64,000 nt of DNA from Escherichia phage RB43. The position numbers and the translations under genes are program-made. Below the pieces are notes generated by a model, which ran no database searches, was not told where the DNA came from, and worked only from the letters and a program-made list of their open reading frames with translations. The stretch lies in sequence record NC_007023.1; one strand, written 5' to 3'. Below are positions 595 to 64,000 of this stretch, piece after piece (positions within the stretch are counted from its first letter, which is position 1; the number at the start of each line of letters is the position of its first letter).

Positions 595-621
595 GGGGCG
601 TAAGCCCCTTTTGAGGTTAAT

Positions 622-15240: not shown

Positions 15241-15333
15241 CTTATCGACAGAAAGGACAACTAAAAGAGTCGCCGCTTCCACCATGTTTACGACACGCCG
15301 ATTTCTCGATCGGTGTCATTGTTAAAATTTTCA

Positions 15334-44258: not shown

Positions 44259-46331
44259 ATGATCATGGATTATGAATCAATAATTGATGGTATTATGCAA
44301 GATTTTCAGCATCCGTGTGATGCTGAAATACCTGCTGGATCGTACAGGCGTATTATCTGGCAGGGACACACAGAAGATTACCCCGCTGTTGGGGTAGAAT
44401 GGGATACAGAAATCATTCCGATCGGGACGCATCTTTACACGCAATCCCCGTTTGGACAGAAAAGCGATCCGCTTCCGGTTGTCAACTCCCCAGGTACAGA
44501 TCCGGGTACTGGGGAAGCAACAGGGATTCTCGTTGCTAAAATTGGTTATTATTTCGCTACTCAACAAGAAATTGATGACTATATCACCTCTATCGGGGCT
44601 ACTAAGCTCGCAGGTAATGATTGGTATGGTGCGGATCTGACAAAAGCGAACCTGTTCAAAAACCCAGGCGAACTTGCAATGTACAAGGTCGAGAACTCAG
44701 GCGGTTATCTACTGACTTCTGGCCCACAATGCGATCAGCGTATCAGACAGGCGTATAATAGCGACACAGGCGCGTTTACAAGCGTTGATTACTATTGGAA
44801 TGGTAATCGTATTGCCTACATGAAACATGACGACACAGGGGCGCACAATTGCAAATACGTGGGTATGGTGGTTAACACCAACGCAGACACAAGCATTCCC
44901 CCTGTACCTCCGGCTATGCCGTCAATTTACGGGGCATTGCCTAGCGAAATTTCAATGATGCGCTCCGGTTTGGGTTGTCTTCCTGCAACGGTAGGTTTTG
45001 CGTACACGAATATCAGTGATGCAATGCTATCCGCATGGAACGAAACGCGCAAGTCGTTTAAGCTCGTGTTTGATATGCTTACGGGTATCACTAAAACGGG
45101 TTCCGGTGGTATCTCCACGATGTACGATGGTTTGTCTATCGCAATGGAGGAAATCACAGCGGGTGCTCTTGCGTTGTCACAGCAAGCATGGCAAGCCGCA
45201 ATTAAGGTGTTCAAAGATATTATGTCTTCTGCGTTAAACATCGTAGGTGGTGCGTGGAACATGATAATGAGTTTTTTACCAACTGTTACGATTCTGGGTG
45301 TTTCAATAAACATCTATGATCTGATTTTCGGTGATAACTCAGTGCAGACACTGAAAGATTCATTCCAGGCGATCATTGATGCTGGTACAGAAACCTATGA
45401 GAACGTCATAAACGCAATATACAGCGCTATAGGCAGTGCATACAATTATACCGTTGAATATGTCAAGGCTGGCGCTCGCGACCTCGTGGATGCTTGCAGT
45501 ACGCTTTTTGACTGGTGTATTACCATGTTTCAAAATGGTTGTGTTGCTCTGGTGGATCTGTATGGGCGAATAATGCAAATCTGGGCTATGCCTCCAACGG
45601 TTCCAAACCCTTTATGGGCTGCTGTTCTGGCTATCCGTAACATTATGATGCAGATCAAGCCGCTTGATGTGATCCTGGGTGGAAACTTCCCTGGGTTTAC
45701 GGCAATGGATTTGTACCAAATGGCACAGGAGAAGGTGAAAGAGTTTATCGATCAGTCGTATGCGCAAATACGCGTGTATTATGAACAGGTGAAGGATCTG
45801 ACTAGCACGTTGACTACACAGACACAAGAAAGGGATGCGATTAAACGCAAGTTCGATCAATACCTTAACTGGATGTGGGGCGCTGTTACAGATGCTGCTA
45901 CCGCTGCATATCAGGCTGCATTAGATGCTGCAAACGAGGCAATCGAGCAAACCAAAGCGCTTATCGCTGGCGTTAAAGCACAGATAGCCGCTCTACAGGA
46001 CGCGATGAAAGATACGTACAGCCTTGCGATGGAAGAACTTAAAAAACTTCCTTTGATGCAGCAGATTAATGAATTCTTAGGCTTCTGTGGGATTGCTTTT
46101 GATGATCTGCTGAAAACCTATGATAACGCGGTTACTGGGGCGAAATCATTATATAAAAACTTTGTTGACAGTTCCCGATCGTTTAAGGATACATGCAAAG
46201 TCATATATAACCAGATATGCACACTTGCTCTAAGTAAGGTGACTCAATACGTGAATAAACTGTTGTCTTTAATCGGACTCGCGATCACTTTTGCGTCAAT
46301 TAATATCTGCGTCCCTATGATTCAACTATAA
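44259..46331 (+). CDS. large hypothetical protein (690 aa) between gp5 and gp6; hydrophobic helices and coiled coil
   Basis: Starts 3 nt after gp5 stop; beta-rich N-terminus, central and C-terminal hydrophobic helices; occupies the slot I recall holding T4 5.1-5.4. Confidence 0.7.
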   Translation: MIMDYESIIDGIMQDFQHPCDAEIPAGSYRRIIWQGHTEDYPAVGVEWDTEIIPIGTHLYTQSPFGQKSDPLPVVNSPGTDPGTGEATGILVAKIGYYFATQQEIDDYITSIGATKLAGNDWYGADLTKANLFKNPGELAMYKVENSGGYLLTSGPQCDQRIRQAYNSDTGAFTSVDYYWNGNRIAYMKHDDTGAHNCKYVGMVVNTNADTSIPPVPPAMPSIYGALPSEISMMRSGLGCLPATVGFAYTNISDAMLSAWNETRKSFKLVFDMLTGITKTGSGGISTMYDGLSIAMEEITAGALALSQQAWQAAIKVFKDIMSSALNIVGGAWNMIMSFLPTVTILGVSINIYDLIFGDNSVQTLKDSFQAIIDAGTETYENVINAIYSAIGSAYNYTVEYVKAGARDLVDACSTLFDWCITMFQNGCVALVDLYGRIMQIWAMPPTVPNPLWAAVLAIRNIMMQIKPLDVILGGNFPGFTAMDLYQMAQEKVKEFIDQSYAQIRVYYEQVKDLTSTLTTQTQERDAIKRKFDQYLNWMWGAVTDAATAAYQAALDAANEAIEQTKALIAGVKAQIAALQDAMKDTYSLAMEELKKLPLMQQINEFLGFCGIAFDDLLKTYDNAVTGAKSLYKNFVDSSRSFKDTCKVIYNQICTLALSKVTQYVNKLLSLIGLAITFASINICVPMIQL

Positions 46332-46333
46332 AT
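46326..46333 (+). promoter_or_regulatory. T4-type late promoter (TATAAATA) for gp6
   Basis: Exact TATAAATA followed by RBS AAGAGGGG and ATG 46355. Confidence 0.6.
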
Positions 46334-46354
46334 ACCCGATAAAGAGGGGTAATA

Positions 46355-48269
46355 ATGGCTACCGTAAAGAAACAAATTAATCAGATCCCCGATATTTTTG
46401 TCGGGGCTACTTTTGATGAAATCAAATCGGAGTTTGATTAACTGGCTCCGAGGTCAGGACGAATTCAAAGATTATGATTTCTCTGGCTCGCGTATGAACG
46501 TGCTTGTTGACCTGCTGTCTTACGCGACATTGTATATTCAACAGATGGGTAACAGTGCTCTATTCGAATCATTTATTCGAACTGCGGCGCTTCGTAGTTC
46601 TGTTGTGCAACATGCTCAGGATTTTGGTTATATGCCGGATTCCCGTACTGCTGCAAACACTTCGATTCTGATTACAGCAAATAACCCACTGAACCCAACT
46701 TCAATTCGTATTCCTCGTGGTACGAAATTCATTGGTACAGTAAAAGATACGAACAGCTTCCCGTTTGTTGTGTCTGATGACGTTGTAATCGTTCGTGATA
46801 AAGATAACAACTATGTGTCGATGCTGAATATCGTACAGGGGCGTTTGGTTCGTACCGAAGTAATCTATGATGGTTCTACTATCCTGATCCGAGATCCGAA
46901 CATTGACCGTAGTCAGGTTCGAGTGACGATCAACGGCGCACAGTGGGACGATTGGACAAACGAAAGTATCGTTAACGCAACGGGCGCAAGTACCGTTTTC
47001 TATATGCGTGAAACGGTAGACGGACATACAGAGGTTTATTTCGGTGAAGGTGAGACAAGTCAACAGGTCGCGGGTGGTGCTCTTACCGCTGACTATATCG
47101 GGGGCTTGAAACCTGCAAACGGTTCTGTCGTTGTTATTGAATACATTTCAACCAACGGCGAAGAAGCAAACGGTGCTGAAAACTTTGTTTACGTGGATAC
47201 GTTGACAAACATCAGCATTACAAGTATTGTTGAGAACCCGACCAACTCTGCTGATTATGTCGGTGCTGATGGTGGTGGTGAACCGGAAGACATTGAACGA
47301 ATTCGAGAATTAGCCCCGATCATGCGTGAAACGCAGCGTCGTTGTGTTACTGCATCGGATTACGAATCATTCCTGTCGCATCGTTTCGGCTCTGTGATTC
47401 AGGCGGTTCAGTGCTTTACCGATAGTGAAAAACCTGGATATGCGTTCATCGCGGTTAAACCGAAATCAGGGTTGCGCCTAACCTCAGTACAGAAAGAGGA
47501 TATGCAAAACTATCTGGCTAAGTATAACCTTGCGACAATTACGCCGTCGATTCTCGACCCTAACTATCTGTATATCGTACAAAGCATTAAAGTCACGTAT
47601 GATATCAGTAAGTTAATCGAGTCAGAAGAATGGCTACGTGGTCAGGTTATCAATGAAATTGACAAGTATTACACTGATAACGTTGAAATTTTCAACAGAT
47701 CATTCAGTAAATCGAAGATGTTGACTTATGTCGATAACGCTGATGTGTCAATCATTGGTTCCTCTGCGACGATTAGCCTGTTGCGTGAACTGGATAACTA
47801 TTACAGTGCGCCGATGTCTGGTATTCACTTCTTAAACCAGGTTGCGTCAAGATCTGTTATTTCTAACGGGTTCAAATATACCAACGCAGATGATGATTCA
47901 TATGATGTGCGCTATGCGTCAACTGATATGGATACATCGACCGGACGTGCTAAGATTGTAATTGGCCCGTTTAAAGATGGTGATATTGCGATAACTCCGT
48001 ATGCTGGTAACGATTTTGATAAATACCCAGGGGTGACAGACAGAACGAAATACTATGAGGTTGGCTATATCGAACATTATAGCGATTTCATCAGCTTCGA
48101 TCTGGGTGTGCTTAACGTCCCAGCAGAACGCTTTAGCGCTGCATATATCGAACTGACTGCAAAACCATTGGAAGAAACCATTTTTACTCGTGATGGTTCT
48201 CTGATTGTATTTGAAAATGACCTTCGTCCTCAGTATACCACGCTGACGATGAATCCAATCAGTCAATAA
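46355..48269 (+). CDS. 6: baseplate wedge subunit gp6 (one-base frameshift near 46430)
   Basis: N-terminus ...IPDIFVGATFDEIKS in one frame, continues ...LINWLRGQDEFKDYDFSGSR... in next; matches recalled T4 gp6; C-terminus FTRDGSLIVFENDLRPQY. Confidence 0.85.
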
Positions 48270-48277
48270 TTTTAACC

Positions 48278-48302
48278 CCTGTCTTATGGCAGGGGTTTTT
48301 TG
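48278..48302 (+). terminator. rho-independent terminator after gp6
   Basis: cccctgtcttatggcaggggttttttg. Confidence 0.55.
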
Positions 48303-48347
48303 TTTGCTAAATATGGGATATAAGTAACGCAAATTTGGAGAAACATA

Positions 48348-51300
48348 ATGATTAAAGCGCCATCAATTACCAGTTTGCGCGTTGATAAACTGGCTGCTAA
48401 CTTCGTTTATTTGAAGTGGGATAGCGTCGGCATGGATTTTTACTATGTCGTAGAAATGGCTGAAACTCGCGGCGCGGGTGGTGCAGTGATTCCAGATGCG
48501 GATTTAACATGGTTTCAGTTAGGCTATGCTTATGCGAACGAATGGTTCTCTACTGCTGTGCAGCCTAATAGCTTCTATAAATTCCGTATTAAGGTTACGC
48601 ATCAGGGCTTTGAACCGTCTGATTGGGTTTACAGTGATGAACTCTGGACATTCACTCTCAACGCCTACGCATATTCAACCATGCGAGAATTTACACCGAG
48701 TGACGCATTTATAAACGAAAAATTCGCTAAAAACAATCAGAACTATGTGAACTTTAACAATGATGTGATCATGGCAGCGCTGATGAAAGAAGACTTTGTT
48801 TTCTCTCCGCTGTATACGGACGTATCCCAGATCAGTGATAAAATTCTTACTCAGGAAAACTATCACGAGATACAGGATCATATTGAACACGTTTGTAATG
48901 ACATTAACAGAACGTTTCTGGTTGCGTCAAATGGTTTGTTATACCTGTTCGAACGTTTTCAGAACATGGCTAAGGTATCCAATGACAAGGGCCAAACATG
49001 GCATTACTACAAAGCGTTTAACGACCGCGTAGGAAACCCTGTAGCGCGTTCTATCGCGTACCAAAGCACAAACACAACTTACGTATTGGGTTACGATCGT
49101 ATCTTCTACGGGCGCACCTCAACGGATATTCGCTGGTCTGCTGACGATGTGCGATTCTCTGCTGACGATATCACCTTTACAAAACTGGGGAACCAGACAG
49201 GGTTAGATTTTGATGTTGACTCATACAATACCTTTGCAAAACTTCCTGGTGATGTATCGAAATATGCAGAAGCAATGGCATGTTCCGACGATTGGCTTTA
49301 TGTTGCAGCGAAAAACATAGTTCGTCGTATTGCTCTGAAACAAACACCGATCGACACCGATCCGAGTTCTCCAACTTTTGGGGAAAAGATTTTCGACGAA
49401 ACAAGCTATACCATTGTTCCAGGCAATGATAAAATTGTTGTTAAGAAAATGGATGTGATGGACAGCAAACTTTACGTGCTCGTTACAGGCGAAGTTAAAG
49501 TTGCTCTGCAAGATCCAACAAAACCGGAAAACGTAGTTCCTTCTGTTGATTCTGGTGTGTATCAGTGGCAAGAAGACACTAAAACCTTTGTGCGCCTGTA
49601 TGGGAACACTGAGGAAGAACGTTTCTTCATTGAACATGAATACACCAATATGTCAACAAACGGAAAAGAAATTTATATTTCTGTTGCCAACTACAAATAC
49701 CCAGGAACTTTGCCAGATCCTGAACTGCTGATAACTAATCCTGAATTGGTTGCTGCTGTTAAGTATGATTTGCGTCCTGGCTATACTGCTAGTCTGTCTA
49801 TCAACTTTGCTACTATTCGAGCAAATATTGATGATCCGACCGTGTGGAAATTCGGCGCACAGGAATACTACAACGAGGCAAATTATAGCTGGTTCTTCCG
49901 TGATTCTGTTCGTACATGGATCACGAATGATAACCGTCCGTTGGTTGTGTATCCGAAAATTGTATATGAAATGGTAACTGATACCGCTGGACCTTCTTCT
50001 ACGTTGCGCGTCAACAAAGAGGTGTGGGATCGTGGACATGTTACAATTTACATTAACAACATTAAATTTACCGGATTTACCAAATACACTAACGGTGTGT
50101 TGTTGTATAAAAGTTCTGGTGAAATTATCGGGTTCTTTGAACTGAGTTACCGCGCTCGTGATAGCCTTACGATTTTCTGGAAACCAGATAACACATTACT
50201 GATTGCGGATCTTATTCAGCAGGAAAGGGAACAACCTTATGTACCGGATTTGTCGCCCGGTTTGATTGATCCTGATTTAAGCCATATGATTACTCGCTTT
50301 GCACCACAAAGCTATCTGGATCAGGAATATTTCGAGAAGTTTGGTGAATATTATTTGCAGTTCGTTTCGTTGGGTGAAAACACCTACTATAACAAATTGC
50401 TGAACCTTATCAGGAACAAATATCCACGCGAGAAGAACTGTGTTGAATATTTGTGGTCGGAAGTAAACCGACGCAATATCTATCTGGATAAAACGAAGCG
50501 TGATCAAGTTGTGCGATTCTTTGAATCCCGTGCGAGTGATTTTTACTCCACGAAAGGTATCGAGGCAAGTTATAAATTCCTGTTCAAACTGCTGTACAAC
50601 GAAGACGTATCCGTAGAAATCGAGAGTTCAAACACTCTGGAATATGATATACTGGTTTCTTCGACTAACATCAGTCAGGACATTGTAGGGCGCACGATTT
50701 ATACACCAACAGCAAGAGCAAACGTGACATATATCGAACGTGATTATGAAGACGGGCAATTGCGATGGTCTATGACTCTGCATAACGTGATCGGTAACTT
50801 CCTTGAAGGACAGGTTGTTAAGTCAGAAAAGACTAATTTCACGGGTAGTATTCTGCGTGGTGTTCGTGGTAAGCAAATGGCGAACAACTCGATCGACTAT
50901 TTCAACCGTGGGCGTTCATACTACGTGATGAAAATCCGTTCAAACCTTCCGGCTTCTCGTTATAAAGATGACGTGTTGCGGTTTGTGCATCCGGTAGGTT
51001 TTGGCTTTATCGGGATCACTATGCTGACGGTGTTCATTAACTCCGGTTTGTCGATGACCCATAGTGAAACAATCATTGATATCCTCCGAAACTATCGCTT
51101 TGATAGCGGATATCCTAAGTATTGGCCCGATCGTGTTGCACGTCTTGACGGTAACGGAAACCAGACATTTGACCTTGTAACAGGTGAAGCATTATATGAA
51201 CCACACCCTAAAGCGGGGCAACCGTTCGATGTTCCACCACAATATGACATTGATGAACAACCGTTAAACGGTGTTTTGCCGTCTGCGCGTCGATTCGATC

Positions 51301-51431
51301 AAAGTCCTCTGTTCGATAGTTCAGCGGTTAAATACTCTCAGTTCCGTAACTTAGTGGAAAAACGATTGAAAGACGATGCGGGTAATCCTCGTGATCCGAA
51401 TCCACCGACTCAGAGAAAGGTAGGAAAATAA
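48348..51431 (+). CDS. 7: baseplate wedge initiator gp7
   Basis: 1027 aa; segments SNDKGQTW, ANTTYVLGYD, DVRWSADDVRFS match recalled T4 gp7. Confidence 0.9.
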   Translation: MIKAPSITSLRVDKLAANFVYLKWDSVGMDFYYVVEMAETRGAGGAVIPDADLTWFQLGYAYANEWFSTAVQPNSFYKFRIKVTHQGFEPSDWVYSDELWTFTLNAYAYSTMREFTPSDAFINEKFAKNNQNYVNFNNDVIMAALMKEDFVFSPLYTDVSQISDKILTQENYHEIQDHIEHVCNDINRTFLVASNGLLYLFERFQNMAKVSNDKGQTWHYYKAFNDRVGNPVARSIAYQSTNTTYVLGYDRIFYGRTSTDIRWSADDVRFSADDITFTKLGNQTGLDFDVDSYNTFAKLPGDVSKYAEAMACSDDWLYVAAKNIVRRIALKQTPIDTDPSSPTFGEKIFDETSYTIVPGNDKIVVKKMDVMDSKLYVLVTGEVKVALQDPTKPENVVPSVDSGVYQWQEDTKTFVRLYGNTEEERFFIEHEYTNMSTNGKEIYISVANYKYPGTLPDPELLITNPELVAAVKYDLRPGYTASLSINFATIRANIDDPTVWKFGAQEYYNEANYSWFFRDSVRTWITNDNRPLVVYPKIVYEMVTDTAGPSSTLRVNKEVWDRGHVTIYINNIKFTGFTKYTNGVLLYKSSGEIIGFFELSYRARDSLTIFWKPDNTLLIADLIQQEREQPYVPDLSPGLIDPDLSHMITRFAPQSYLDQEYFEKFGEYYLQFVSLGENTYYNKLLNLIRNKYPREKNCVEYLWSEVNRRNIYLDKTKRDQVVRFFESRASDFYSTKGIEASYKFLFKLLYNEDVSVEIESSNTLEYDILVSSTNISQDIVGRTIYTPTARANVTYIERDYEDGQLRWSMTLHNVIGNFLEGQVVKSEKTNFTGSILRGVRGKQMANNSIDYFNRGRSYYVMKIRSNLPASRYKDDVLRFVHPVGFGFIGITMLTVFINSGLSMTHSETIIDILRNYRFDSGYPKYWPDRVARLDGNGNQTFDLVTGEALYEPHPKAGQPFDVPPQYDIDEQPLNGVLPSARRFDQSPLFDSSAVKYSQFRNLVEKRLKDDAGNPRDPNPPTQRKVGK

Positions 51432-52423
51432 TGGCTCAACAAAACATCTACCGTGCGGTAGTAACAGGAAAATTCCGCACGGAAAACATGATGAACTTTC
51501 GTGATATGATCGGGGATGACCCCGATCACAACTCGATTTATATGTCAATCGGGAGAACTGAACAATGGGCTGATAACGAATCAGATCCTGAATTCGCTCC
51601 CCCGTATCCAAACGATGATACAGATGGTATTGTTGATATGTGGACGCATATGATCGGGGCGACAAAAGTTCCTGGCGAAATGATTGATGCAATCGTTCCG
51701 CGTAAAGATTGGGGCGATACTCGCTATCCAAACCCTAAAATATTCTATGTGAATGATATCGTGGTTGTCAACTCCGCACCTTACAACCGTACTGACTACG
51801 GGAAAGGATGGATGATTTACCGCGTTGTAGACGTTCCTGATATTGGTTCTTGTTCTATTTCCAGTATCACAGGTAAAGTCGAATGTGTGCGCATTGGTGG
51901 TATCTGGACACCGACCCATGAATCTGTTGAACCTCCACGCGGAGAAGCAAACGGAATTGATATGGGCGACGGGTACAAGTGGGAATATCTTTATACGATC
52001 CCGCCTGATGTCGTTATCAACCGATGCACAAACGAACATATCGTTGTTCCGTTCCCTGATGAACTGGAAGAAGATCCGGTACGCTGGGGTTATGACAACG
52101 TGATCAAATGGTATCCAGATATGTATGATCTGGTGTTCCGTATGAAAGTTCATTCAATGCGATTCCGTGCGTATATGGATTCTCTATTTTTCCCGCAAGC
52201 CTCGCTACCTGGCAACCGTGGATTCCGTCAAATCAGCGTGATTGTTAACCCGCTGTTGAAAAAGGCGCAACCAACAGACCCAGAAGTGAAAGCAACCGGA
52301 CAATTCTATACAAAGGATCAATTCGAACTGGATTCTGGACAGATGATCTATATGGAAAACAGACAACCGATTATTCGATCCCCAGATCAGACCGAAGAAG
52401 TCAGTATTATTTTCGAATTCTAA
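51431..52423 (+). CDS. 8: baseplate wedge subunit gp8
   Basis: 330 aa (T4 334); synteny. Confidence 0.8.
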   Translation: MAQQNIYRAVVTGKFRTENMMNFRDMIGDDPDHNSIYMSIGRTEQWADNESDPEFAPPYPNDDTDGIVDMWTHMIGATKVPGEMIDAIVPRKDWGDTRYPNPKIFYVNDIVVVNSAPYNRTDYGKGWMIYRVVDVPDIGSCSISSITGKVECVRIGGIWTPTHESVEPPRGEANGIDMGDGYKWEYLYTIPPDVVINRCTNEHIVVPFPDELEEDPVRWGYDNVIKWYPDMYDLVFRMKVHSMRFRAYMDSLFFPQASLPGNRGFRQISVIVNPLLKKAQPTDPEVKATGQFYTKDQFELDSGQMIYMENRQPIIRSPDQTEEVSIIFEF

Positions 52424-52433
52424 GGAAACCATA

Positions 52434-53297
52434 ATGGCATATCAAACAGGTAAAAAATTAATTGACGTGGGGCAGATCGGCAACCCGTCAACTGGTGACC
52501 CGCTGTATGACGGCGGTGTTAAACTTAACGAAATCATCACCAACGTGTATAATGCGTTCGGTGATGTGCGTTTGCTGACTGCAAATGATGGTGTTGGTAC
52601 AATGCTGCTTCATGCAACTGGATATTTCCAGAAGTTGCCAAGAACGTATTATTCAGCAAACCCGATCGAACTGGGTTCATTGCATGATATGGATACAGCA
52701 ACAGGGCCAATTACGGTTGTTCTTCCGTCTGGTAAGGCTGGCGAAGGGTGCTATTTCATAAATAGTAACGGTAGTATTTCTGTTGATCGTCCTGTTGTAT
52801 TTCGTCCTCAAGTAGGCGATAACATCAAAGGGGTTAAGGATCAGCTTTATATCACTTCTCCTTACACCCAGATTAAATTATGGTGTGTGAAGAAAGAAGG
52901 TTCAGTAACCACATGGGATTATTCAGTCGAATCTATGTTCGGCTCTAAAACAATGCCCGTGGATACTACCAAACTAATTTTGAAAGCATCACCGACCGCA
53001 ATTCCTTTATTCGGTTACAGTGAATTCAGCGGGGCTAAGTTGCTAGTATATGCTGAAAATATGACAGGTACAGTCAACAAAATGGCTGAACTTCTCCTGT
53101 CTGTGGATCGTATCGCAAGGGGCGTATATTCTACGGAATATGCTGTACTGAAAAATAGCGATGATGACATGTATTCACTTACTTTCACTGTCGGTGCTGG
53201 TGACATTGTATATGCAAACGTCCAATCGGTACTCGAAGATCGAATTAAGTTCTCGATTAAAGCGGTTGACACCATTAAATCAGGGATCGCAGCATGA
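52434..53297 (+). CDS. 9: baseplate wedge / long tail fibre connector gp9
   Basis: 287 aa (T4 288); synteny. Confidence 0.8.
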   Translation: MAYQTGKKLIDVGQIGNPSTGDPLYDGGVKLNEIITNVYNAFGDVRLLTANDGVGTMLLHATGYFQKLPRTYYSANPIELGSLHDMDTATGPITVVLPSGKAGEGCYFINSNGSISVDRPVVFRPQVGDNIKGVKDQLYITSPYTQIKLWCVKKEGSVTTWDYSVESMFGSKTMPVDTTKLILKASPTAIPLFGYSEFSGAKLLVYAENMTGTVNKMAELLLSVDRIARGVYSTEYAVLKNSDDDMYSLTFTVGAGDIVYANVQSVLEDRIKFSIKAVDTIKSGIAA

Positions 53298-55111
53298 AAC
53301 AAGAAATTATTATTGGTAACGTGGTTGATGATGGCGCTGGCGATTACTTACGCCGTGGTGGTCAGAAAACAAACGCGAACTTTACCGAACTATACGAAAA
53401 GCTGGGTGATGGGGAGATCCCACACCCAGCGGGTGCATGGAAAACACATTCAGCACCGACTCTGAACCCGATTTTCGGTGATTCATGGGCGCTGAATACC
53501 AGCAACAACCGTATTACTGTAAACCTCCCTAAAGGCGGCGTAGGCGATTATAACAAGGTTATTCGTCTGCGTGACGTATGGAGTAAATGGGCTGTAAACA
53601 ACGTCCGTATTGTTCCTGCAACTGGTGATACCATCAAAGGATCACCAACTTACAAAGAACTGTACAAAGATTTCATGGATGTTGAGTTAGTTTATTGTGC
53701 GCCTGGTCGTTGGGAATATGTCGAAAACAAACAGGTTGACAAAATCACAACTTCCGATCTGGCTACTGTAGCAAAAGAAACATATATTGCTACACAAGGA
53801 CAGACAGATTTCCCGAATGTGTTTGGCCCTGGTAACTCGTACAACGTCCGTGCTCTGGAAGTTTACTATCGTGGTAACTTGCTGTACATCGACGACAAAA
53901 ACGGATTTGTTGAAGCAAACAGCGATTATGGTTCACCTGGTACAAACCCTGGAGAATTGATTGACCTTGATGGTACTAACATACGCCTTAAACGTCCGTG
54001 TAACGCTGGAGACACGCTTCAATTCGTAACCTATATGGATGGTATAGCGACATGGCGATCGACGTATGAGGCGCATACTATGCGCGTATACAACACGGGT
54101 GATACTGAACTGGTAAGCGTACCTGGTGAAATCTGGGTTGGCAACCTTGCAACCAAAAAAGAATTTACCACTGCTGAATTCGGGATCAGTTCTCGTGTAT
54201 TGATTAATCCGAACTCTTTCGAACTGCTGTTGAACGGTCGCCAACTTGTTAAAGCAGGTGACGCGGATCTTCCTACATTCGTGTGTGAAGGGGCAGAAGG
54301 TTATGATGAAGATAGCTGTTTAGCTAACTCCGGTGCGTGGGTTCCTTCTGGACAGGACTACAGTTTGATCTTTGTTGATTCCATTGTAACAGGTATCAAA
54401 TTCAGTCAACCTCTTGAAAGTCGCGATGTTGTTACGATCCGTTGGTTCAATAACGATATCGGAACTGTAATGGAATGGGAAGGTGTTGGCGGTATTAAAG
54501 AGCATACCGATAAAATCTATCTGAACAACGAAGAAGAGTTAACCCTAGTTGGACGGATTGAATATACCGACTATAACAACCCGTCGCAGAAAACGATGCG
54601 TAAAATTACGGAACCTTTCAGCGGTCGATTGCTGGATCTGCAAGCGTTTTTTGATGTGATTCATCCGATCGGGACGATCTACGAAAACGCGCATAACGAC
54701 GCAAACCCAGGCGAATACATGGGCTTCGGTATCTGGAAACGGTACGCAGAAGGTCAATTTATCGCTGGTTGGACAACTGATGCAGCAGATAGCGATTTTG
54801 GTTTAAACAACAACGATTTGGATGGTTCTGGACAGCCTACACACACAGCAGGTGGTTCTGGTGGTGAACGTGGTTATGAAATTCATCCGATCAACGTTCC
54901 ACAAATTGAATCAACCGATAAAGTTCTGATTAAGGACGACAACGGGATCATTATCATTGGTGGCTGTCAGGTTGACCCAGATGCAACAGGGCCAGGATAC
55001 ACTAAATACCGTGAGGATGTATTGAAAGTAAATCAGGGTAACACTACCCCAGATAAACTTAAAACGCTCCCTCCGTATATTACTGCACATCGCTGGATAA
55101 GGGTAGCATAA
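53294..55111 (+). CDS. 10: baseplate wedge subunit and tail pin gp10
   Basis: 605 aa (T4 602); synteny. Confidence 0.8.
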   Translation: MKQEIIIGNVVDDGAGDYLRRGGQKTNANFTELYEKLGDGEIPHPAGAWKTHSAPTLNPIFGDSWALNTSNNRITVNLPKGGVGDYNKVIRLRDVWSKWAVNNVRIVPATGDTIKGSPTYKELYKDFMDVELVYCAPGRWEYVENKQVDKITTSDLATVAKETYIATQGQTDFPNVFGPGNSYNVRALEVYYRGNLLYIDDKNGFVEANSDYGSPGTNPGELIDLDGTNIRLKRPCNAGDTLQFVTYMDGIATWRSTYEAHTMRVYNTGDTELVSVPGEIWVGNLATKKEFTTAEFGISSRVLINPNSFELLLNGRQLVKAGDADLPTFVCEGAEGYDEDSCLANSGAWVPSGQDYSLIFVDSIVTGIKFSQPLESRDVVTIRWFNNDIGTVMEWEGVGGIKEHTDKIYLNNEEELTLVGRIEYTDYNNPSQKTMRKITEPFSGRLLDLQAFFDVIHPIGTIYENAHNDANPGEYMGFGIWKRYAEGQFIAGWTTDAADSDFGLNNNDLDGSGQPTHTAGGSGGERGYEIHPINVPQIESTDKVLIKDDNGIIIIGGCQVDPDATGPGYTKYREDVLKVNQGNTTPDKLKTLPPYITAHRWIRVA

Positions 55112-55773
55112 TGACACAATTTATTTCAAAGACAAGGGAGGGGGCGAAAGTCCCTTCCCGTGAAGCAGACTTTTTGCAATATGAAATGGGTACTAAAGAC
55201 CCTCTTATCGGTGGTAAACGTACTATCGGTGGTGCAAACGTCGATCAGCTTCGTAAAGGGGTAGATTATCCCAACGTGCAATCAGCAATCGATGACCTGT
55301 ATACTCTGTCTCAACAGATCCCGATCAACGGGGTTATCATGATGACAGAAGACAGTCCTCCGACCGCTGTTCAGCAGGTAGAGACTATAACTTTTGATGG
55401 TACTGTACAAAACACAGATCCAGACCAGACAAAAGCAACAATTCATGTTTATGGATTCCCGTTCGTGTTCGATAACACAACGAACGCATCAACCGTATGC
55501 GAAACAGTCTACAACAAGTTTACTGAATTTGTCAATGACGAAAAATATTTCGATCTGGTAACTCGCAAGGGCTTGAACGGTGAAATTCTGGAAGTTCGGT
55601 TTATTGATTGTGTTCCGCATCCGGTAACAAATACTACTGAAAACGGAATATCTATGGTAGGAACAATCGATGTACAGGCACGATCTGGTTACGGTACGTG
55701 GTCGAAACTGGGTGAGGTGGATCTTGCTGTAACTCCGGCAGTTCCAATTTTCTACTTTAAACGTATTGCGTAA
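55111..55773 (+). CDS. 11: baseplate wedge subunit and tail pin gp11
   Basis: 220 aa (T4 219); synteny. Confidence 0.8.
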   Translation: MTQFISKTREGAKVPSREADFLQYEMGTKDPLIGGKRTIGGANVDQLRKGVDYPNVQSAIDDLYTLSQQIPINGVIMMTEDSPPTAVQQVETITFDGTVQNTDPDQTKATIHVYGFPFVFDNTTNASTVCETVYNKFTEFVNDEKYFDLVTRKGLNGEILEVRFIDCVPHPVTNTTENGISMVGTIDVQARSGYGTWSKLGEVDLAVTPAVPIFYFKRIA

Positions 55774-55782
55774 GGATAACCA

Positions 55783-57174
55783 ATGAGTAACAACACAATT
55801 AACCACGTAAGCGATGCGTCCGTTTACGTGACTTTTGATCCGGCAGGTACGCAATGGCCCTCGACTTTCGTCAACGTACAGCAAGCATTAGCCTCTATAG
55901 GCCCGTGGGCGCGTACTGATGTTGGTTTGCCTAACGCGGCTCCTGGTATGCGTGGTATTGCTGCTATTGCTACCGAGGCGATGATTGACGCAGGGACAGA
56001 CAACGAAACGATCGTTACTCCTGCATTGCTGGCATATCGTTTACAAAATCCTCATGCGTCACAAACCGTTTGGGGATATACCAAATACGCAACTGATGCG
56101 GAAGCGGTTGATGTCGCAAACGATCTGGTTTCATTAACTCCGCGTTCGATCAATGTGGTTTTCAATACCAGACACGCATCAGAAACCGTGTGGGGTTCTT
56201 CTAAACTGTCAACGACAGCACAGGCAACAGCGGGTACTGATGATACAACCTCAATGACACCATTGAAGGTAAAACAAGCAATCTCTGCTCTGGTTCCGGT
56301 ACAATCCAACGCAACAGAAAGCGCGTTCGGTTTGGTTCAGTTGGCTACGGTTTCAGAAGTCCGCGCGGGTACTATTCGCGACGGTTTCGCAATTTCACCG
56401 TATACGTTTATTCGTCTGAATGCAACAGAAAGCGATCTGGGTATTGTTCGCCTAGCAAGTCAGGCAGAAGTAAACGCAGGAACTGATGATACCAAAGCCG
56501 TTACCCCGTTAAAACTGGCTAACCTTAAAGGCTCCGGTGGTTCTTTCGGTTTGGTTAAATTATCAACAGAAGTAAACGCAGGGCTGGCTAACACTGCTCT
56601 TTCTGCGGGTGCTAACGTAGTACCGAGCAACCGTGACAGCGCTATCACTGGTGGTGCATTGTATCAGGGTTCAGTTGCTGCTGCTAATAAATACCAGACA
56701 CATAGCGATATCGAAGCATCGTTACCGATTGGCTGTATGATGATGGCTGCATTTAACTCCGATTACGGAAACCTGTGTATTGCCAACGGTCGCGGGATGT
56801 ATACATACGAATACCCTGAACTGTTTGCACTTATAGGTTATACGTATGGCGGTAGTGGTAACATTTTCAACCTTCCCGATATGCGAGGCGTGGTTGCTCG
56901 TGGATTTGATGCGGGACGTGGTTTAGACCCAGGTCGCGGTTTTGGTACATACCAGCATCACGAAGTACAGTCACATGAACACCCTCTGCAAATGATCTAT
57001 CAGTCTGGTGGTAACTTACCATCATGGCAGTGTGTTTATGAACTGCGTACTGCGGAGAAAAACGACCAGCAATTATACTGGCCTGATCCTTCACTCAGTA
57101 AAGCAATGGCTGTTGGCGGCAACGAAACGCGAATGAAGAACCTTGCGATCAACTATGTAATTCGAGTACGATAA
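55783..57174 (+). CDS. 12: short tail fibre gp12
   Basis: 463 aa; repetitive fibre region; His-rich C-terminal receptor-binding region. Confidence 0.8.
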   Translation: MSNNTINHVSDASVYVTFDPAGTQWPSTFVNVQQALASIGPWARTDVGLPNAAPGMRGIAAIATEAMIDAGTDNETIVTPALLAYRLQNPHASQTVWGYTKYATDAEAVDVANDLVSLTPRSINVVFNTRHASETVWGSSKLSTTAQATAGTDDTTSMTPLKVKQAISALVPVQSNATESAFGLVQLATVSEVRAGTIRDGFAISPYTFIRLNATESDLGIVRLASQAEVNAGTDDTKAVTPLKLANLKGSGGSFGLVKLSTEVNAGLANTALSAGANVVPSNRDSAITGGALYQGSVAAANKYQTHSDIEASLPIGCMMMAAFNSDYGNLCIANGRGMYTYEYPELFALIGYTYGGSGNIFNLPDMRGVVARGFDAGRGLDPGRGFGTYQHHEVQSHEHPLQMIYQSGGNLPSWQCVYELRTAEKNDQQLYWPDPSLSKAMAVGGNETRMKNLAINYVIRVR

Positions 57175-57186
57175 AGGGGTTAATCC

Positions 57187-59475
57187 ATGATTTCAAAACT
57201 TAACCCGTTACCAAAGATCCCGTTTGTTGATGGTGTCCCTTCGGACACCACACAAACCCCGATCAACTGGATAATTAACGGCGAAACTCTCGATGGTGCT
57301 AAAACCAAAGTCACTAACGAGGGTTCTTTAAACAGGTGCGGTGTTCTGGTACAAAAGAACGCGGTGCAATTAGAAACCAACACCATTACACAGACTGCAA
57401 AAATCAACGAAGTTATCGATCAGGTTAACCTCATTAGTGAAAACCTCGCGGCTATTTCTGATGAAAGCGTGATTGACAAACTGGATCAGGTTGTTGCTGA
57501 TGTAGAAGTGTTGAAAGTTGATATGACTGCGGTTCAAGGTTCTACTGCAAGCAATACCCTGAAAATCCAGGATCTCGATAAAGAGATCGGGACGTGGGAC
57601 GCTTCAACAGATCCTAAACACCGTACCATTCGAAAAGATATTATTTTCCTGAAAGGGGAAATGGGTGCGTACCCTGGGTTTAACGAAAACGGCGACGTAG
57701 ATCCGACATCAACGGGTTCCGGCATGAAATACAAAATCATGACGAACGCGCAAGCGATTTCGATTCATGAAGGACGTATTACGCGCCTTGAAGATGATTG
57801 GGCTAACTCAGACGTAGGTCATTTAACTGATGAAGTAACCGATCTGCGTAACGAAATGGGGCCAAAACATTTAGCGACATTTGAATCTGTATATGTTCGC
57901 CTGAACACTATCGGTACTGAGATCACTGGTATCAATTCCGAACTAACCAGCATCAACCAATATATCGGTCGTACTGGCACGGGTGGAACTGGTAGTATTT
58001 CTGCGCGTATGACTACGGCAGAATCGAATATCGCAACCCTGCAAACGCAGATGAATGATTCTGCTACTGGTGTATTACCTCGCGTAATTTCTTTGGAAAA
58101 TGCTGTCGGTAACTCTCAGATCCCTGGTAGTATTCGTTACGACATCAGCGCAATCAAACGTGACATCGGTGATATCAACATGATCGTCGGTGAATCAAGC
58201 GATGATGGTCTTCGTGGGGAAATGGCTCAGGTTATGACCGATATCGGTACTGATTCACAGCCTACGAGCATCAAAGGCCGTTTGCTGAACGTTGAGAACA
58301 CCCAACGTGACGATCATCAGAAACTGATTGACGTTGAATCTGTTGTTGGTAATACTTCAAGTGGACTCGTTGCGGCTAATATCGCGATGGGTAAAGCTGT
58401 TTACGGTGATGCAACGAGTTCTGATCCATTCCTGAAAGACGGTATTCAGAAAACAGCGCGTGACAGTAAAGCGGCTATCGGTGTAAACACAACCGGATCT
58501 GAAACAGGGATCTATAAACTGATTTCGGATTTGACTGCTCGTGTTGCTGCACTTGAAAGCGGTACTGGTGGCGAACTTGAACAACGTGTTTCTGATTTGG
58601 AAACCAATAAAGCATCGCATCAGGACGTTGCAAACGCATTGGTTCCGTATATTACCGAAGCGGAAGCAGATGTTAAGTACGAACCGAAGAAAATTCCGTT
58701 ATCGTTTACGCAAAACCTTGTTGGGCGTGGCGATTATATCGAAGGTGATGACATTTCTTTCATGGTTACGGTAACAGGTGGTAAACTGCCTTATGTCTAC
58801 CAGTGGAAGAAAGGAACCGCTGATGTAGGTACTAACGCATCGAGCATTCTGATCCAAAGCATTACCTCTGCCGACGCTGGCGTGTATAAAGTTGTTGTTA
58901 CCGATGCAGACAACACCGTAATTACTTCTGACGAAGTGACGGTTGCTGTTTATCCGGTTCCTCAGTTTGATACTAACCTGGCTGACAAATCGGTGGTTGA
59001 CGGTGATCCTCTGACTCTGGAAGTTGTATACAGCGGTGGTAAACCTCCGTACACTTACGAATGGTTCAAAGATAACTCTGTTATCTCTGGGGAAACATCA
59101 GCAACATTTACCAAATCTGCTGTTACAAGCGCTGATGCTGGTGAATACTATGTTTCTGTAACTGACGCAATGAACAACCAAAACGATTCAGTGAAAGCAA
59201 CCGTGACTGTAACACCTCGTCCGGCTCTTGCATTCACTACGGATCTGAGTGCTACTAAATCATACAGCACAGGTGCTAACATGGATCTTGCTGTTGTCGT
59301 GACTGGTGGTAAAACACCATATACGTATAAATGGTTTAAAGACACTGCGGAAATTTCCGGTCAGACAGGTGCAAGCCTTACCACTGTAGCAGAAGATGGG
59401 GTGTATAAAGTCGAAGTGACGGATGCACTAACGACTAAAATCACATCAACTGAATGCACGGTAACTGTGGCATAA
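57187..59475 (+). CDS. wac: fibritin (wac) with C-terminal tandem Ig-like domains
   Basis: N-terminus LNPLPKIPFVDGVPSD...INWIINGETLDGA matches recalled T4 fibritin; C-terminal ~90-aa repeats (GGKLPYVYQWKKG, PYTYEWFKD, PYTYKWFKD). Confidence 0.8.
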   Translation: MISKLNPLPKIPFVDGVPSDTTQTPINWIINGETLDGAKTKVTNEGSLNRCGVLVQKNAVQLETNTITQTAKINEVIDQVNLISENLAAISDESVIDKLDQVVADVEVLKVDMTAVQGSTASNTLKIQDLDKEIGTWDASTDPKHRTIRKDIIFLKGEMGAYPGFNENGDVDPTSTGSGMKYKIMTNAQAISIHEGRITRLEDDWANSDVGHLTDEVTDLRNEMGPKHLATFESVYVRLNTIGTEITGINSELTSINQYIGRTGTGGTGSISARMTTAESNIATLQTQMNDSATGVLPRVISLENAVGNSQIPGSIRYDISAIKRDIGDINMIVGESSDDGLRGEMAQVMTDIGTDSQPTSIKGRLLNVENTQRDDHQKLIDVESVVGNTSSGLVAANIAMGKAVYGDATSSDPFLKDGIQKTARDSKAAIGVNTTGSETGIYKLISDLTARVAALESGTGGELEQRVSDLETNKASHQDVANALVPYITEAEADVKYEPKKIPLSFTQNLVGRGDYIEGDDISFMVTVTGGKLPYVYQWKKGTADVGTNASSILIQSITSADAGVYKVVVTDADNTVITSDEVTVAVYPVPQFDTNLADKSVVDGDPLTLEVVYSGGKPPYTYEWFKDNSVISGETSATFTKSAVTSADAGEYYVSVTDAMNNQNDSVKATVTVTPRPALAFTTDLSATKSYSTGANMDLAVVVTGGKTPYTYKWFKDTAEISGQTGASLTTVAEDGVYKVEVTDALTTKITSTECTVTVA

Positions 59476-59476
59476 T

Positions 59477-59502
59477 TTAACAAGGGGCGCAAGCCCCTTT
59501 TG
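59477..59502 (+). terminator. rho-independent terminator after wac
   Basis: aaggggcgcaagccccttttg. Confidence 0.55.
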
Positions 59503-59510
59503 AGGATCAT

Positions 59511-60434
59511 ATGATTACGAACAATCCTGAACAATTGAAGGATGAAATTCTTCGTCGTCTGGGCGCACCAATCATCAAAATCGAAATCACACAAGACCAG
59601 ATTTACGATTGCATTCAACGCGCACTGGATCTGTATGCGGAATATCACTACAACGGAACAAACAAAAGTTACATTATCCTTACGTTAGGCGAAGACAACC
59701 CGCGAAACGTATTTGATTTGAGTAAAGAACATATTTTCGCGGTTACAAAAGTATTGCGTACAAATATCGGTTCATTGGTTTCTATGGACGGTACAGCGGT
59801 TTATCCGTGGTTTACTGATTTCCTGATGGGGCTTACTGGTGGTTCTCTGGGCGGTCGCTGTGCATCAAGCGTGTACGGTATGAATGCATATGGCGCGGAT
59901 CTGGGGTATTTTACACAGATGATGTCATATCAACGTTCAATGCAAGAGTTGCTGGCTCCATTACCTGATTACTGGTACAACGATGACACTGGTCAGTTTT
60001 GTGTATGGGGTAAAGTCAACAACGGTGATATTATTGTCATTGAAGTGATGGTAAGATCCTTTGTCGATGTTCCTAGTGCCGTAGGAAGCGTTGCAGGATA
60101 CGCTACAGCGGGTTCTAACGCAGTAGAAGACCAATCCATAGCCGACATCTACGATAACCCGTATAACGCGGTTGTGGGCGGTGTACGAGCGGGACAGGGT
60201 ACAACTGTTACTGGTGGAACCTCTGCATATAACAACCGTTGGGTAAAAGACTACTCAACCGCGCTGGTAAAAGAAATCAACGGGCAAATTCTGGCTAAGT
60301 TTCAGGGTATGCAATTGCCTGGTGGTGTTGCTCCAGATGGAACACGACTGATTCAGGAAGCGGAAACCAAATTACAAGGATTGCGCGACGAACTGATTTC
60401 TATGTCTGACGCAGTTCCTATTATTATGGTGTAG
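59511..60434 (+). CDS. 13: neck protein gp13
   Basis: 307 aa (T4 309); synteny. Confidence 0.8.
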   Translation: MITNNPEQLKDEILRRLGAPIIKIEITQDQIYDCIQRALDLYAEYHYNGTNKSYIILTLGEDNPRNVFDLSKEHIFAVTKVLRTNIGSLVSMDGTAVYPWFTDFLMGLTGGSLGGRCASSVYGMNAYGADLGYFTQMMSYQRSMQELLAPLPDYWYNDDTGQFCVWGKVNNGDIIVIEVMVRSFVDVPSAVGSVAGYATAGSNAVEDQSIADIYDNPYNAVVGGVRAGQGTTVTGGTSAYNNRWVKDYSTALVKEINGQILAKFQGMQLPGGVAPDGTRLIQEAETKLQGLRDELISMSDAVPIIMV

Positions 60435-60442
60435 GGGGAATA

Positions 60443-61189
60443 ATGCAAAACTGGGATGAAAGTTTATTCGCTCAGTTGTCAACGGGGGAGGGAGTCGATC
60501 GCAACTTAAAGGATCAAGTCACTAACCCGTATGTAAACTGGTACAAATATAACCCAACACAACAGCTACATGATTCACTTACAGCAGAATCAATCCAGAT
60601 GAAATCACCTGATATGTATTATGTCAGACGTGAATTTGTGAATATAGATAAAATTCTGGGTGAAGACCGAGAGTCTAAATTCACGAAATCGTGGAAGATC
60701 GCTGCATATATTGAATCATATGCTAACTATGAAGGACAGCGGGACTTCTTTAGCAAATTCGGGTTGAGTTCTAACGACGAAATGACGCTGGTACTAAATC
60801 CGCGTTTATTTGCACATCAAACTGATGGTGGTATTCCGGTGCTGGGGGATTTGGTTTATTTCCCAATGGATAACAGCTTGTTTGAAATTACATGGGTGGA
60901 AGCAGATCCGTTCTATCAGTTCGGTGATCGTCCTCAACGTAAAATCAACCTGGCTAAATTCATCTACACGGGCGAAGAATTGGCTCCTGAATTGCAGCGA
61001 AACGAAGGAATCCATATCGAACCTGATGCAGAACTGGATCTTGAACCTATTCGAAATCTTGACGGGCTGGCAGATATTAACATTGAACAGTACGAAGAAG
61101 ACAAAGAATTTGAAAGAGAAGGTGACGAGTTTATCGAATCTTTTGATGTTGTCAACGGTCGCGGTTCTCCGTTTGCTACACTGCCCTAA
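60443..61189 (+). CDS. 14: neck protein gp14
   Basis: 248 aa (T4 256); synteny. Confidence 0.8.
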   Translation: MQNWDESLFAQLSTGEGVDRNLKDQVTNPYVNWYKYNPTQQLHDSLTAESIQMKSPDMYYVRREFVNIDKILGEDRESKFTKSWKIAAYIESYANYEGQRDFFSKFGLSSNDEMTLVLNPRLFAHQTDGGIPVLGDLVYFPMDNSLFEITWVEADPFYQFGDRPQRKINLAKFIYTGEELAPELQRNEGIHIEPDAELDLEPIRNLDGLADINIEQYEEDKEFEREGDEFIESFDVVNGRGSPFATLP

Positions 61190-61261
61190 ATACAAATAGG
61201 GGAAACCCTATATATGTTGGGGTGTATGGTGAAAACCTGCACCCGATTCAAAGAGGATCTT

Positions 61262-61876
61262 ATGATATACACAAAACTTAAAGAATGGTTGCCTCATGAT
61301 CTATACGTTGAGTATGTTGATATCATAACGGCTTCACCAAAAACAGAATACACAGAAAAACATCATATATTACCACGATCGCTATTTCCTGAATTTGAAA
61401 ACGACCCAGACAACTTAGTAGAACTTGATGTGATGAAGCATTTGATGGCTCATAGGACATTAGCAAAAACCAATGACCATAAAATGATTCTCGCGTTTTT
61501 CATGATGTTCACCTACGAACATAAACGTTATTCTACATTGTCAGAACAGGAACAACAATTTATTCTTGAAGAAAAGACAAAAGCCCGTGAAGCAATGCGT
61601 GTTGTTAAAAAAGAACAGATGAAAGGTAAATATGATGGTGAAAACAACCCATTTTACGGAAAACGACATACTGATGAATTTAAGAAAATGATGGGTTCTG
61701 TGCATAAAGGTAAGAAGTTATCACCAGAACATTTAGCAAATCTCGTTGCCGCACACAAAGGCAAAAAACGAGAAAAAGTAAAATGCCCCCATTGTGGGAT
61801 AATGTGCGCCGCTAATACAGCAAAGCGCTGGCACTTCGATAACTGTAAGTCTGGACTTGTCCAGCAGGGGGATTAG
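61262..61876 (+). CDS. free-standing HNH homing endonuclease with C-terminal NUMOD-like repeats, inserted between gp14 and gp15
   Basis: HNH core TEKHHILPRSLFPEF...DNLVELDVMKHLMAH; repeated NPFYGKRHTDEFKKMMGSVHKGKKLSPEHLANL; Zn CPHCG...C. Confidence 0.8.
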   Translation: MIYTKLKEWLPHDLYVEYVDIITASPKTEYTEKHHILPRSLFPEFENDPDNLVELDVMKHLMAHRTLAKTNDHKMILAFFMMFTYEHKRYSTLSEQEQQFILEEKTKAREAMRVVKKEQMKGKYDGENNPFYGKRHTDEFKKMMGSVHKGKKLSPEHLANLVAAHKGKKREKVKCPHCGIMCAANTAKRWHFDNCKSGLVQQGD

Positions 61877-61927
61877 AAAATTTTCGGATATTGGTATAAT
61901 AGTTCGCTGCGTAACTATATCGTTCTT

Positions 61928-62703
61928 ATGGGACAATTGTTTAACCATGTTCAAGTTAAACGAGTGCGTGGCGAACAAGAAAAATTCATTAAGGTTCCGA
62001 TTACCTATGCTTCAAAAGAGAAGTTTCTCGCTTCCATGAACAAACTCAACTACACGTTGAGTCAGGAAAACGTAGCGAAAACGGAAACCATTTTACCGCG
62101 AATGAATCTATCACTGGTGGACCTGCAATATAACGCAATTCGTAAAACCAGTATCGCGGTTAACCAGAAAATGTCGCAGTTACAAGCACCGCGTAAAACG
62201 ATCACACAGTTTAACCCTGTGCCATATCGTCTAATCTTTGAACTGGGTGTGTACACTCGTTACGAAGACGATATGTTTCAGATCGCAGAACAGATTTTGC
62301 CTTATTTTCAACCGCATTTCAACTGCAAGATTACCGAACTGCATAAGAACGAAATCAAAGTTGACCGAGACATCAAAATTAGTCTCCAATCGGTTGCACC
62401 AGATACAACGTTTGAAGGTGATGTTACCCAGCGCCGACACGTTGAATGGTCTTTCATGTTTGAATTACAGGGTTATCTGTACCCGCCTGTGACTGATGTC
62501 AAAGGTGAAATCAGAACAGTATACACGGATTTCTTTGCAAATATGAACCCACTGGACAAGGATAACTTTGAATCAGTGGACAGTCAAGCAGATCCGGTTG
62601 ATTTACCGCTTCAAGATTATACAGGCGAAGAATACATTCAGACTTATTCGCGCAACACGCCGATCCCGTCTGGTGATGAACCTCCGAAGCCGAGGGGAAC
62701 ATA

Positions 62704-62704
<1 letters not shown>
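61928..62704 (+). CDS. 15: tail sheath stabiliser and completion protein gp15
   Basis: ETILPRMNLSLVDLQYNA...YTRYEDDMFQIAEQILPYFQPHFN matches recalled T4 gp15. Confidence 0.9.

Positions 62705-64000
<1,296 letters not shown>

Follow-up and report, generated by a model that had tools for sequence, protein, structure and literature searches.

The open reading frame (ORF) at 57187-59475 in a 64,000-nucleotide stretch of the Escherichia phage RB43 genome (NC_007023.1; this whole stretch is called the window below) encodes a neck whisker protein whose C terminus differs from that of its T4 counterpart. It is virtually certain, from identity as well as architecture, that this ORF is the wac gene of RB43 and that its product is the RB43-type fibritin. 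Fibritin is a trimeric fiber; in T4-like phages it makes up the neck collar and whiskers. In the RB43 protein, a neck-attachment domain and a coiled-coil shaft homologous to those of T4 fibritin are followed by a short junction and then, according to profile searches and structure prediction, by exactly three I-set immunoglobulin (Ig)-like domains. An original prediction, made from the sequence alone, had proposed an altered whisker terminus with Ig-like repeats instead of the T4 foldon and a possible adhesin function. The altered terminus is borne out by the shaft homology, the Pfam matches, the predicted structure, and the foldon tests described below.

Publications of 2005 and 2013 already described this gene, the three Ig-like domains of its product, and their substitution for the foldon, and put forward the adhesin hypothesis. 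Letarov and Krisch 2013 (PMC3797505), citing Letarov et al. 2005, state that RB43 fibritin carries three Ig-like domains and that of KP15 one, that in distant fibritins alien sequences replace the C-terminal domain, and that Ig-bearing fibritins might be accessory adhesins bringing the virion near the cell. The published RB43-type fibritin and the present protein agree in the conserved N terminus, the coiled-coil shaft, the three C-terminal Ig-like domains, and the existence of a single-Ig, KP15-like variant. The additions made here are minor: domain boundaries, variants with two and four Ig domains, selection statistics, the lack of fine-scale covariation with gp36, and the closeness to Hoc-type Ig domains.

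Identity of the protein and homology to T4 fibritin

The gene was assigned to wac because its product is 100% identical to AY266305.1 (AAP04365.1), described as "RB43 wac: fibritin," because the gene order is T4-like, and because the protein has fibritin matches to T4 and to PHROG. The identical protein (100%) is also encoded in the RB43 genomes HE981739.1 and HE858210.2, and positions 45000 to 64000 of the window are 100% identical to the two genome records of RB43. The PHROG 1056 profile, "fibritin neck whisker," matches the protein with an E value of 8e-185.

The original prediction had aligned the N terminus with T4 fibritin. The similarity in fact spans residues 9 to 456, which are collinear with residues 7 to 454 of T4 fibritin (phmmer E value of 5e-47; structures 2bsg/3j2o), and it ends 2 to 3 residues short of the T4 foldon. 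A four-way alignment of the fibritins of T4, RB43, Klebsiella phage Olmo, and Slopekvirus KLB1 gave 31% overall identity between RB43 and T4 and contained the invariant columns PFVDG..W.NGE..GS.NR in the N-terminal domain. Pfam Fibritin_C matches amino acids (aa) 373 to 489 with 81.5 bits (cutoff, 21) and an E value of 5e-23. The N-terminal domain of fibritin has a neck-binding role, and fibritins are trimeric by biochemistry (PMC3797505).

RB43 fibritin thus resembles T4 fibritin (2bsg, 3j2o, and 1ox3) in the position of its gene between gp12 and gp13, in its N-terminal neck-binding domain, and in its collinear coiled-coil shaft. The two proteins differ beyond the shaft. T4 fibritin has 487 aa and ends in a foldon of 27 to 30 residues, a beta-hairpin propeller, whereas the RB43 protein, with the 762 aa given in the original prediction (which put T4 fibritin at about 487), continues with about 45 residues of loop, helix, and junction and then with three Ig-like domains.

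Three Ig-like domains at the C terminus

Three repeat units, at aa 498 to 590, 591 to 680, and 681 to 762, share 40 to 49% pairwise identity with BLOSUM62 local scores of 142 to 174; the best local scores of these units against the first 497 residues were just 30 to 54. The expected PYxYxW(F)K motif is present in each (PYVYQWKK, PYTYEWFK, and PYTYKWFK). The expected SADAGxY motif holds for two repeats, as SADAGVY and SADAGEY, and is degenerate in the third copy, which reads AEDGVY. W540, W626, and W718, together with the DAGxY/DGVY motifs, fit the core tryptophan and the D-x-G-x-Y tyrosine-corner pattern of Ig domains.

Three Pfam families matched above their curated cutoffs, namely, Ig_3 with 73.1 bits (cutoff, 30; three stretches), Ig_2 with 50 bits (cutoff, 27), and I-set with 47.9 bits (cutoff, 23.7). 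An AlphaFold2 (AF2) model of the monomer, covering aa 441 to 762 and based on a 15-sequence alignment, had a mean predicted local distance difference test score (pLDDT) of 87 and contained three beta-sandwich domains with block-mean pLDDT values of 92 to 98 over aa 501 to 762. The best Foldseek matches of the model in the PDB included titin I67-I69 (E value of 1.7e-16) and RB49 Hoc (E value of 2.2e-15); NCAM, Robo, and similar Ig tandems were matched as well. Profile searches and the model therefore agree with the original prediction that the repeats are Ig-like in fold.

The number of repeats of about 90 aa had been left at three or four. The three copies stand, and the protein ends with the third (Ig3, residue 762). 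A fourth copy was rejected: the region before Ig1 (aa 457 to 500) scored 30 to 54, against 142 to 174 among the repeats, and is predicted to be helical, not beta. The AF2 helices in and around this region, at 442 to 457, 464 to 489, and 491 to 497, are of low confidence (pLDDT of about 50 over aa 441 to 500).

Absence of the T4 foldon

In a local alignment of the 27-residue T4 foldon with the RB43 protein, the best match scored 23, while 300 shuffles gave a mean of 24.3 and a maximum of 41. This match pairs YITEAEAD of RB43 with YIPEAPRD of T4, and the YIxEAxxD likeness is insignificant. When the C-terminal profiles of RB43-type and T4-type fibritins were compared with hhalign in local mode, the alignment stopped far upstream of the foldon region. 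In global mode the start of the T4 foldon was placed over YITEAEADV-KYEPKK with a probability of 9.5%, and the foldon probabilities overall were 4 to 10%. The foldon profile used is shallow because only 10 homologs of the T4 C terminus were found, mostly engineered foldon fusions.

A hidden Markov model (HMM) built from T4-type C termini alone gave no significant match to RB43-type proteins and did not reach the junction motif. On the Olmo protein, its sole collinear alignment scored 0.5 bits (E value of 0.49; not significant) and ended at "ALEAAG" opposite "ALQEAG" of T4, just before the foldon. The hallmark of the foldon hairpin (DGEW...STFL, including the tryptophan) has no counterpart in the RB43 protein. 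A hidden foldon was rejected after these searches, and our judgment, based on sequence comparison, is that RB43 fibritin has none. The absence claimed in the original prediction is thereby upheld, as closer alignment revealed no foldon-like segment.

Could a part of the foldon have been kept? The junction motif PYITEAEADVKYEPKK might be what is left of the N-terminal arm of a T4-type foldon, Ig domains having taken the place of its beta-hairpin alone. With both MAFFT and global hhalign, the T4 foldon start falls over YITEAEADV-KYEPKK; residues Y488, I489, E491, and D495 do not vary among RB43, Olmo, KLB1, and T4; and the Fibritin_C profile, which covers the T4 foldon (T4 373 to 482 at profile positions 2 to 92), fits RB43 373 to 489 end to end by its match coordinates. 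Yet the local score lies below the shuffled mean, the hhalign probability is low in global mode and the local alignment ends far upstream, the T4-type HMM does not extend to the motif, and the hairpin hallmark with its tryptophan is missing. The motif also lies about 30 residues downstream of the end of T4 collinearity. We therefore regard descent of the motif from a foldon as unlikely. The foldon defines only the T4/JS98 subtype and not the whole fibritin family, and only the T4 and JS98 types fold with foldon motifs alone (PMC3797505).

Relatives and origin of the Ig string

At least 172 phage records cover at least 80% of the protein, with hosts including E. coli, Citrobacter, Klebsiella, Enterobacter, Cronobacter, and Buttiauxella. 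Fibritins differ in how many Ig domains they have: Slopekvirus KLB1 (584 aa) has a single one, Klebsiella phage Olmo (679 aa) has two, RB43 has three, and a metagenomic fragment (P0002) has four. The constant one is Ig1, with which the sole Ig domain of KLB1 aligns at 50% identity; Ig3 is absent from Olmo-type fibritins.

The C-terminal Ig domain of an uncharacterized metagenome protein (P0011) shares 58% identity with Ig3 and 51% with Ig2, and that of another uncharacterized metagenome protein (P0015) also shares 51% with Ig2. Each RB43 Ig domain resembles Ig domains in other phage proteins more than it does the neighboring repeats, which indicates that the repeats are old or separately acquired. 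A recent tandem duplication at the DNA level was rejected, since Tandem Repeats Finder detected no repeat of Ig period in wac.

A homolog search with the Ig region gave 20 matches. More than 1,700 phage records contain the same Ig family, which is present in Hoc-like decoration proteins, in major tail proteins, and in the "neck whiskers" proteins of siphophages. The nearest relatives outside the fibritins are Hoc-type decoration and tail proteins, e.g., P0004 of phage EcS1, which carries several Ig-like domains and is 41% identical over 80% of the Ig-region query, and the "head outer capsid protein" of Kosakonia phage Kc283. PHROG profiles for "Hoc-like head decoration" match aa 491 to 677 with an E value of 9e-58.

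Hoc (3shs and 5vf3) and RB43 fibritin are alike in having a tandem I-set Ig-like string exposed on the virion, consistent with the fold match to RB49 Hoc. They differ in attachment: Hoc has a capsid-binding domain and is anchored at the center of the capsid hexamer, whereas RB43 fibritin has the Ig string as a fusion to the tip of a trimeric fiber on the neck. The Hoc capsid-binding domain has a conserved ESRNG region (PMC10385173). This domain was not found in RB43 fibritin, which ends with Ig3, and T4 Hoc (5vf3) matches the Ig part only.

A "putative neck whiskers protein gp24" (9occ) ends in an Ig domain homologous to Ig3 (aa 671 to 759 of RB43 fibritin versus 152 to 237; E value of 1.3e-9). 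At 238 aa it is much shorter, and it has no detectable similarity to the N terminus or shaft of fibritin. Annotations similar to this neck whisker protein occur in Salmonella phages of about 42 kb.

Selection and covariation with the tail fiber

Between RB43 and Citrobacter phage Miller, wac shows 15 nucleotide differences, of which 15 are synonymous and 0 are nonsynonymous. Against six more distant orthologs, the ratio of nonsynonymous to synonymous substitution rates (dN/dS; Nei-Gojobori) was 0.02 to 0.2 in every part of the gene, including each Ig domain. Ig3 is the most conserved Ig domain among orthologs with three (83 to 98% amino acid identity; dN/dS of 0.02 to 0.06), while Ig1 and Ig2 are 71 to 96% identical to their orthologs. 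These values indicate that the Ig domains are under purifying selection.

Citrobacter phages Miller, IME-CF2, CfP1, and Xman encode a Wac protein with 100% identity to that of E. coli phage RB43. The gp36-like tail fiber proteins of RB43, IME-CF2, and Xman are 83 to 86% identical to that of Miller, and that of CfP1 is 98.3% identical. In RB43 and RB16, Wac is 99.7% identical and the gp36-like protein is 56.5% identical. RB16, with a three-Ig Wac, and Olmo, with a two-Ig Wac, have gp36-like proteins that are 93.3% identical; the Olmo Wac is 82% identical to that of RB43. The RB43-type gp36-like protein has 756 aa, is very unlike T4 gp36, and is annotated as "36-37.1" in AY266307.1. No fine-scale covariation of the Wac Ig array with the gp36-like protein was found within the Pseudotevenvirus phages compared. 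By these sequence comparisons, the Ig array does not follow the host within Pseudotevenvirus, and it does not follow the part of gp36 that varies.

Proposed function of the whisker Ig domains

The T4 fibritin C-terminal region nucleates folding and contacts the long tail fiber near the knee, and non-T4 fibritin types need an expanded C-terminal domain for folding (PMC3797505). In RB43, the junction and the always-present Ig1 may supply the C-terminal registration and folding that the foldon provides in T4. The whisker would keep the T4 fibritin roles of aiding long-tail-fiber attachment and holding the fibers retracted. At the tip of each trimeric whisker, three flexible strings, each made of three Ig domains, would be exposed to the surrounding medium. 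By analogy with Hoc and other phage Ig decorations, these strings most likely give the virion a generic, low-affinity adhesion to surface carbohydrates that does not depend on the host. A generic adhesion role is favored because the domains have Hoc-like relatives, vary in copy number in a modular way, and covary with neither host nor fiber. Taken as a whole, this account of the RB43-type fibritin is the best explanation and is probably right; our confidence is lowered because its functional part is inference.

Several points weigh against this account. The literature searched contained no experiment on the binding, adsorption, or structure of the RB43 Ig domains and no later experimental test of whisker Ig function. 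The AF2 prediction covers the monomer only. Ig3 is the most conserved domain and is nevertheless dispensable in Olmo-type phages, which is awkward for any single essential role. The strong purifying selection also fits a structural partner among the virion proteins at least as well as it fits a glycan ligand.

The last point leads to a different function, in which the Ig array mainly docks the long tail fiber, replacing the contact between the T4 foldon region and the gp36 "knee," and acts as an assembly chaperone and retraction sensor with no adhesin role. The C-terminal part of T4 fibritin contacts the fiber near the knee, an interaction for which Letarov et al. 2005 reported genetic evidence, as summarized in PMC3797505. 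A fixed protein partner would suit the strong purifying selection, above all on the tip domain Ig3, and the RB43-type gp36-like protein is very different from T4 gp36. The conserved blocks of this protein (aa 1 to 50, aa 201 to 250, and the C terminus) could be the site of contact. The independent assortment of Wac and the gp36-like protein within Pseudotevenvirus, seen in the RB43/RB16 and RB16/Olmo comparisons above, and the variation of the Ig number from 1 to 4 speak against such docking. Fiber docking is a serious possibility that these assortment data weaken, and we hold it to be the less likely function, although it and generic adhesion are not mutually exclusive.

That the Ig domains form a host-specific receptor-binding module helping to set the host range is very improbable: Ig-like domains do lie at the distal tip of an exposed fiber, and PMC3797505 compares their possible role to that of tail fiber adhesins, but phages isolated on E. 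coli and those isolated on Citrobacter freundii have an identical protein, the dN/dS of 0.02 to 0.2 gives no sign of diversifying selection, and the true host range proteins (gp36-like) diverge strongly in the same phages.

Possible relocation of the Hoc Ig string

T4 Hoc consists of three Ig-like domains and then a C-terminal capsid-binding domain (PMC10385173). The "Hoc-like head decoration" protein of Miller, a close relative of RB43 (15137-15640 of the Miller stretch), has 167 aa, no Pfam Ig match, and a capsid-binding domain with the ESRNG motif at its N terminus. Its residues 8 to 79 match the C-terminal capsid-binding domain of EcS1 P0004 with 46.6% identity and an E value of 9e-21. A search of the RB43 genome with Wac as the query found one place only at an E value of <1e-5. 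Because of this single locus and the Ig-less Hoc-like protein of Miller, sequence comparison suggests that the whisker, and not Hoc, bears the I-set Ig string in the RB43 lineage.

A bolder reading is that a Hoc-style Ig string was in effect moved from the capsid to the whiskers, with the junction and Ig1 forming a new, foldon-independent unit for trimer registration. We consider this relocation doubtful. A surface- or mucus-adherence role has been ascribed to Hoc. If the whisker array had that role, the module would be placed at the head-tail junction, beside the tail fiber sensor.

Gene features and genomic setting

The coordinates of wac, of the parts of its product, and of nearby features are listed in Table 1.

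Table 1. Features of the wac locus of phage RB43 (nucleotide positions are those of the window)
Feature	Nucleotides	Amino acids	Strand	Description and evidence
gp12 homolog (short tail fiber)	55783-57174		+	463 aa
Shine-Dalgarno-like AAGGGG	57174-57179		+	7 nt before the wac ATG; read from sequence
wac (fibritin, neck whisker/collar protein)	57187-59475		+	ATG start, 762 aa plus stop codon; ORF translation
Conserved N-terminal neck-attachment domain	57211-57384	9-66 (1-66 with the N-terminal residues)	+	Matches T4 fibritin fragments 1ox3 and 2ibl
Segmented coiled-coil shaft	57385-58554	67-456	+	Aligns collinearly with T4 fibritin as far as residue 454
RB43-type junction	58555-58686	457-500	+	Gly loop ESGTGG, extra helical segment, and conserved motif PYITEAEADVKYEP; four-way alignment
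Gly loop ESGTGG		457-462		
Extra helical segment		463-486		About 25 aa, not in T4
Conserved junction PYITEAEADVKYEP		487-500		
Ig-like domain 1	58687-58956	501-590	+	Pfam Ig_3, SprB, and V-set; AF2 beta-sandwich, block-mean pLDDT of >=92
Ig-like domain 2, I-set type	58957-59226	591-680	+	Pfam Ig_3 593-659, I-set 592-673, and Ig_2 603-673; AF2
Ig-like domain 3, distal tip	59227-59472	681-762	+	AF2; matches 9occ at aa 671-759
Terminator-like hairpin GGGGC-GCAA-GCCCC, then TTTT	59484-59501		+	9 nt past the wac stop; read from sequence
ORF between gp14 and gp15	61214-61876		+	220 aa; Pfam NUMOD3, E 1.9e-6

Judged from ORF lengths and order, the genes around wac are arranged as gp10, gp11, gp12, wac, gp13, gp14, a NUMOD3 homing endonuclease, gp15, and gp16. 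The order gp10-gp11-gp12-wac-gp13-gp14 is common to RB43 and T4, with wac placed between gp12 (short tail fiber) and gp13 (neck protein), as in the T4 and Miller annotations.

The Shine-Dalgarno-like sequence of wac shares one base with the gp12 stop codon (its last), and the Miller record annotates a ribosome binding site at the equivalent position. It also annotates a terminator at the position equivalent to the 3' hairpin; a generic terminator scan skipped this hairpin, as the scan needs at least five T residues. The T4 late promoter consensus TATAAATA was not found within the wac locus, and its three matches across the 64-kb window equal the chance expectation. A scan for sigma-70 promoters gave only background levels, and ARAGORN found no tRNA or tmRNA genes in the window (1-64000).

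The gp12 homolog is shorter than T4 gp12 (463 versus 527 aa, the latter from a 1,584-nucleotide gene), and its residues 317 to 371 form a Pfam Phage Tail Collar domain. The gp12 genes of RB43 and Miller differ by 27 mismatches, and the 3' part of the gene is the least conserved stretch (96.4% at 56500 to 57000) of an otherwise near-identical RB43/Miller block.

Identity between RB43 and Miller is mosaic, with 87 to 95% at 45000 to 48500 (gp6/gp7), 99 to 100% at 49000 to 61500, and 82 to 92% from 62000. This pattern indicates putative recombination breakpoints flanking the baseplate-wac-neck block. The ORF between gp14 and gp15 has an HNH-like N terminus (EKHHILPRS...NLV...H, judged by eye). 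Its Miller ortholog is annotated as a homing endonuclease, and T4 has no gene at that position. Identity to Miller is >99% upstream of this ORF and falls abruptly right after it, to 91.9% in gp15 and 87.3% in gp16, a drop that would fit endonuclease-associated recombination.

In the tail fiber genes, the gp36-like protein of RB16 is closer to that of Klebsiella phage Olmo (93.3%) than to that of RB43 (56.5%), despite the near-identical Wac proteins of RB16 and RB43. This pattern points to a probable exchange of tail fiber modules within the genus, between phages of E. coli and those of Klebsiella.

Significance

As a discovery, the present finding carries little weight. The adhesin role of the whisker Ig domains is a 20-year-old suggestion. 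RB43 fibritin remains a good illustration of how domains are shuffled in structural proteins of phages. The T4 foldon is widely used as a tag, and the RB43 protein is a naturally occurring trimeric coiled coil whose folding does not depend on it.

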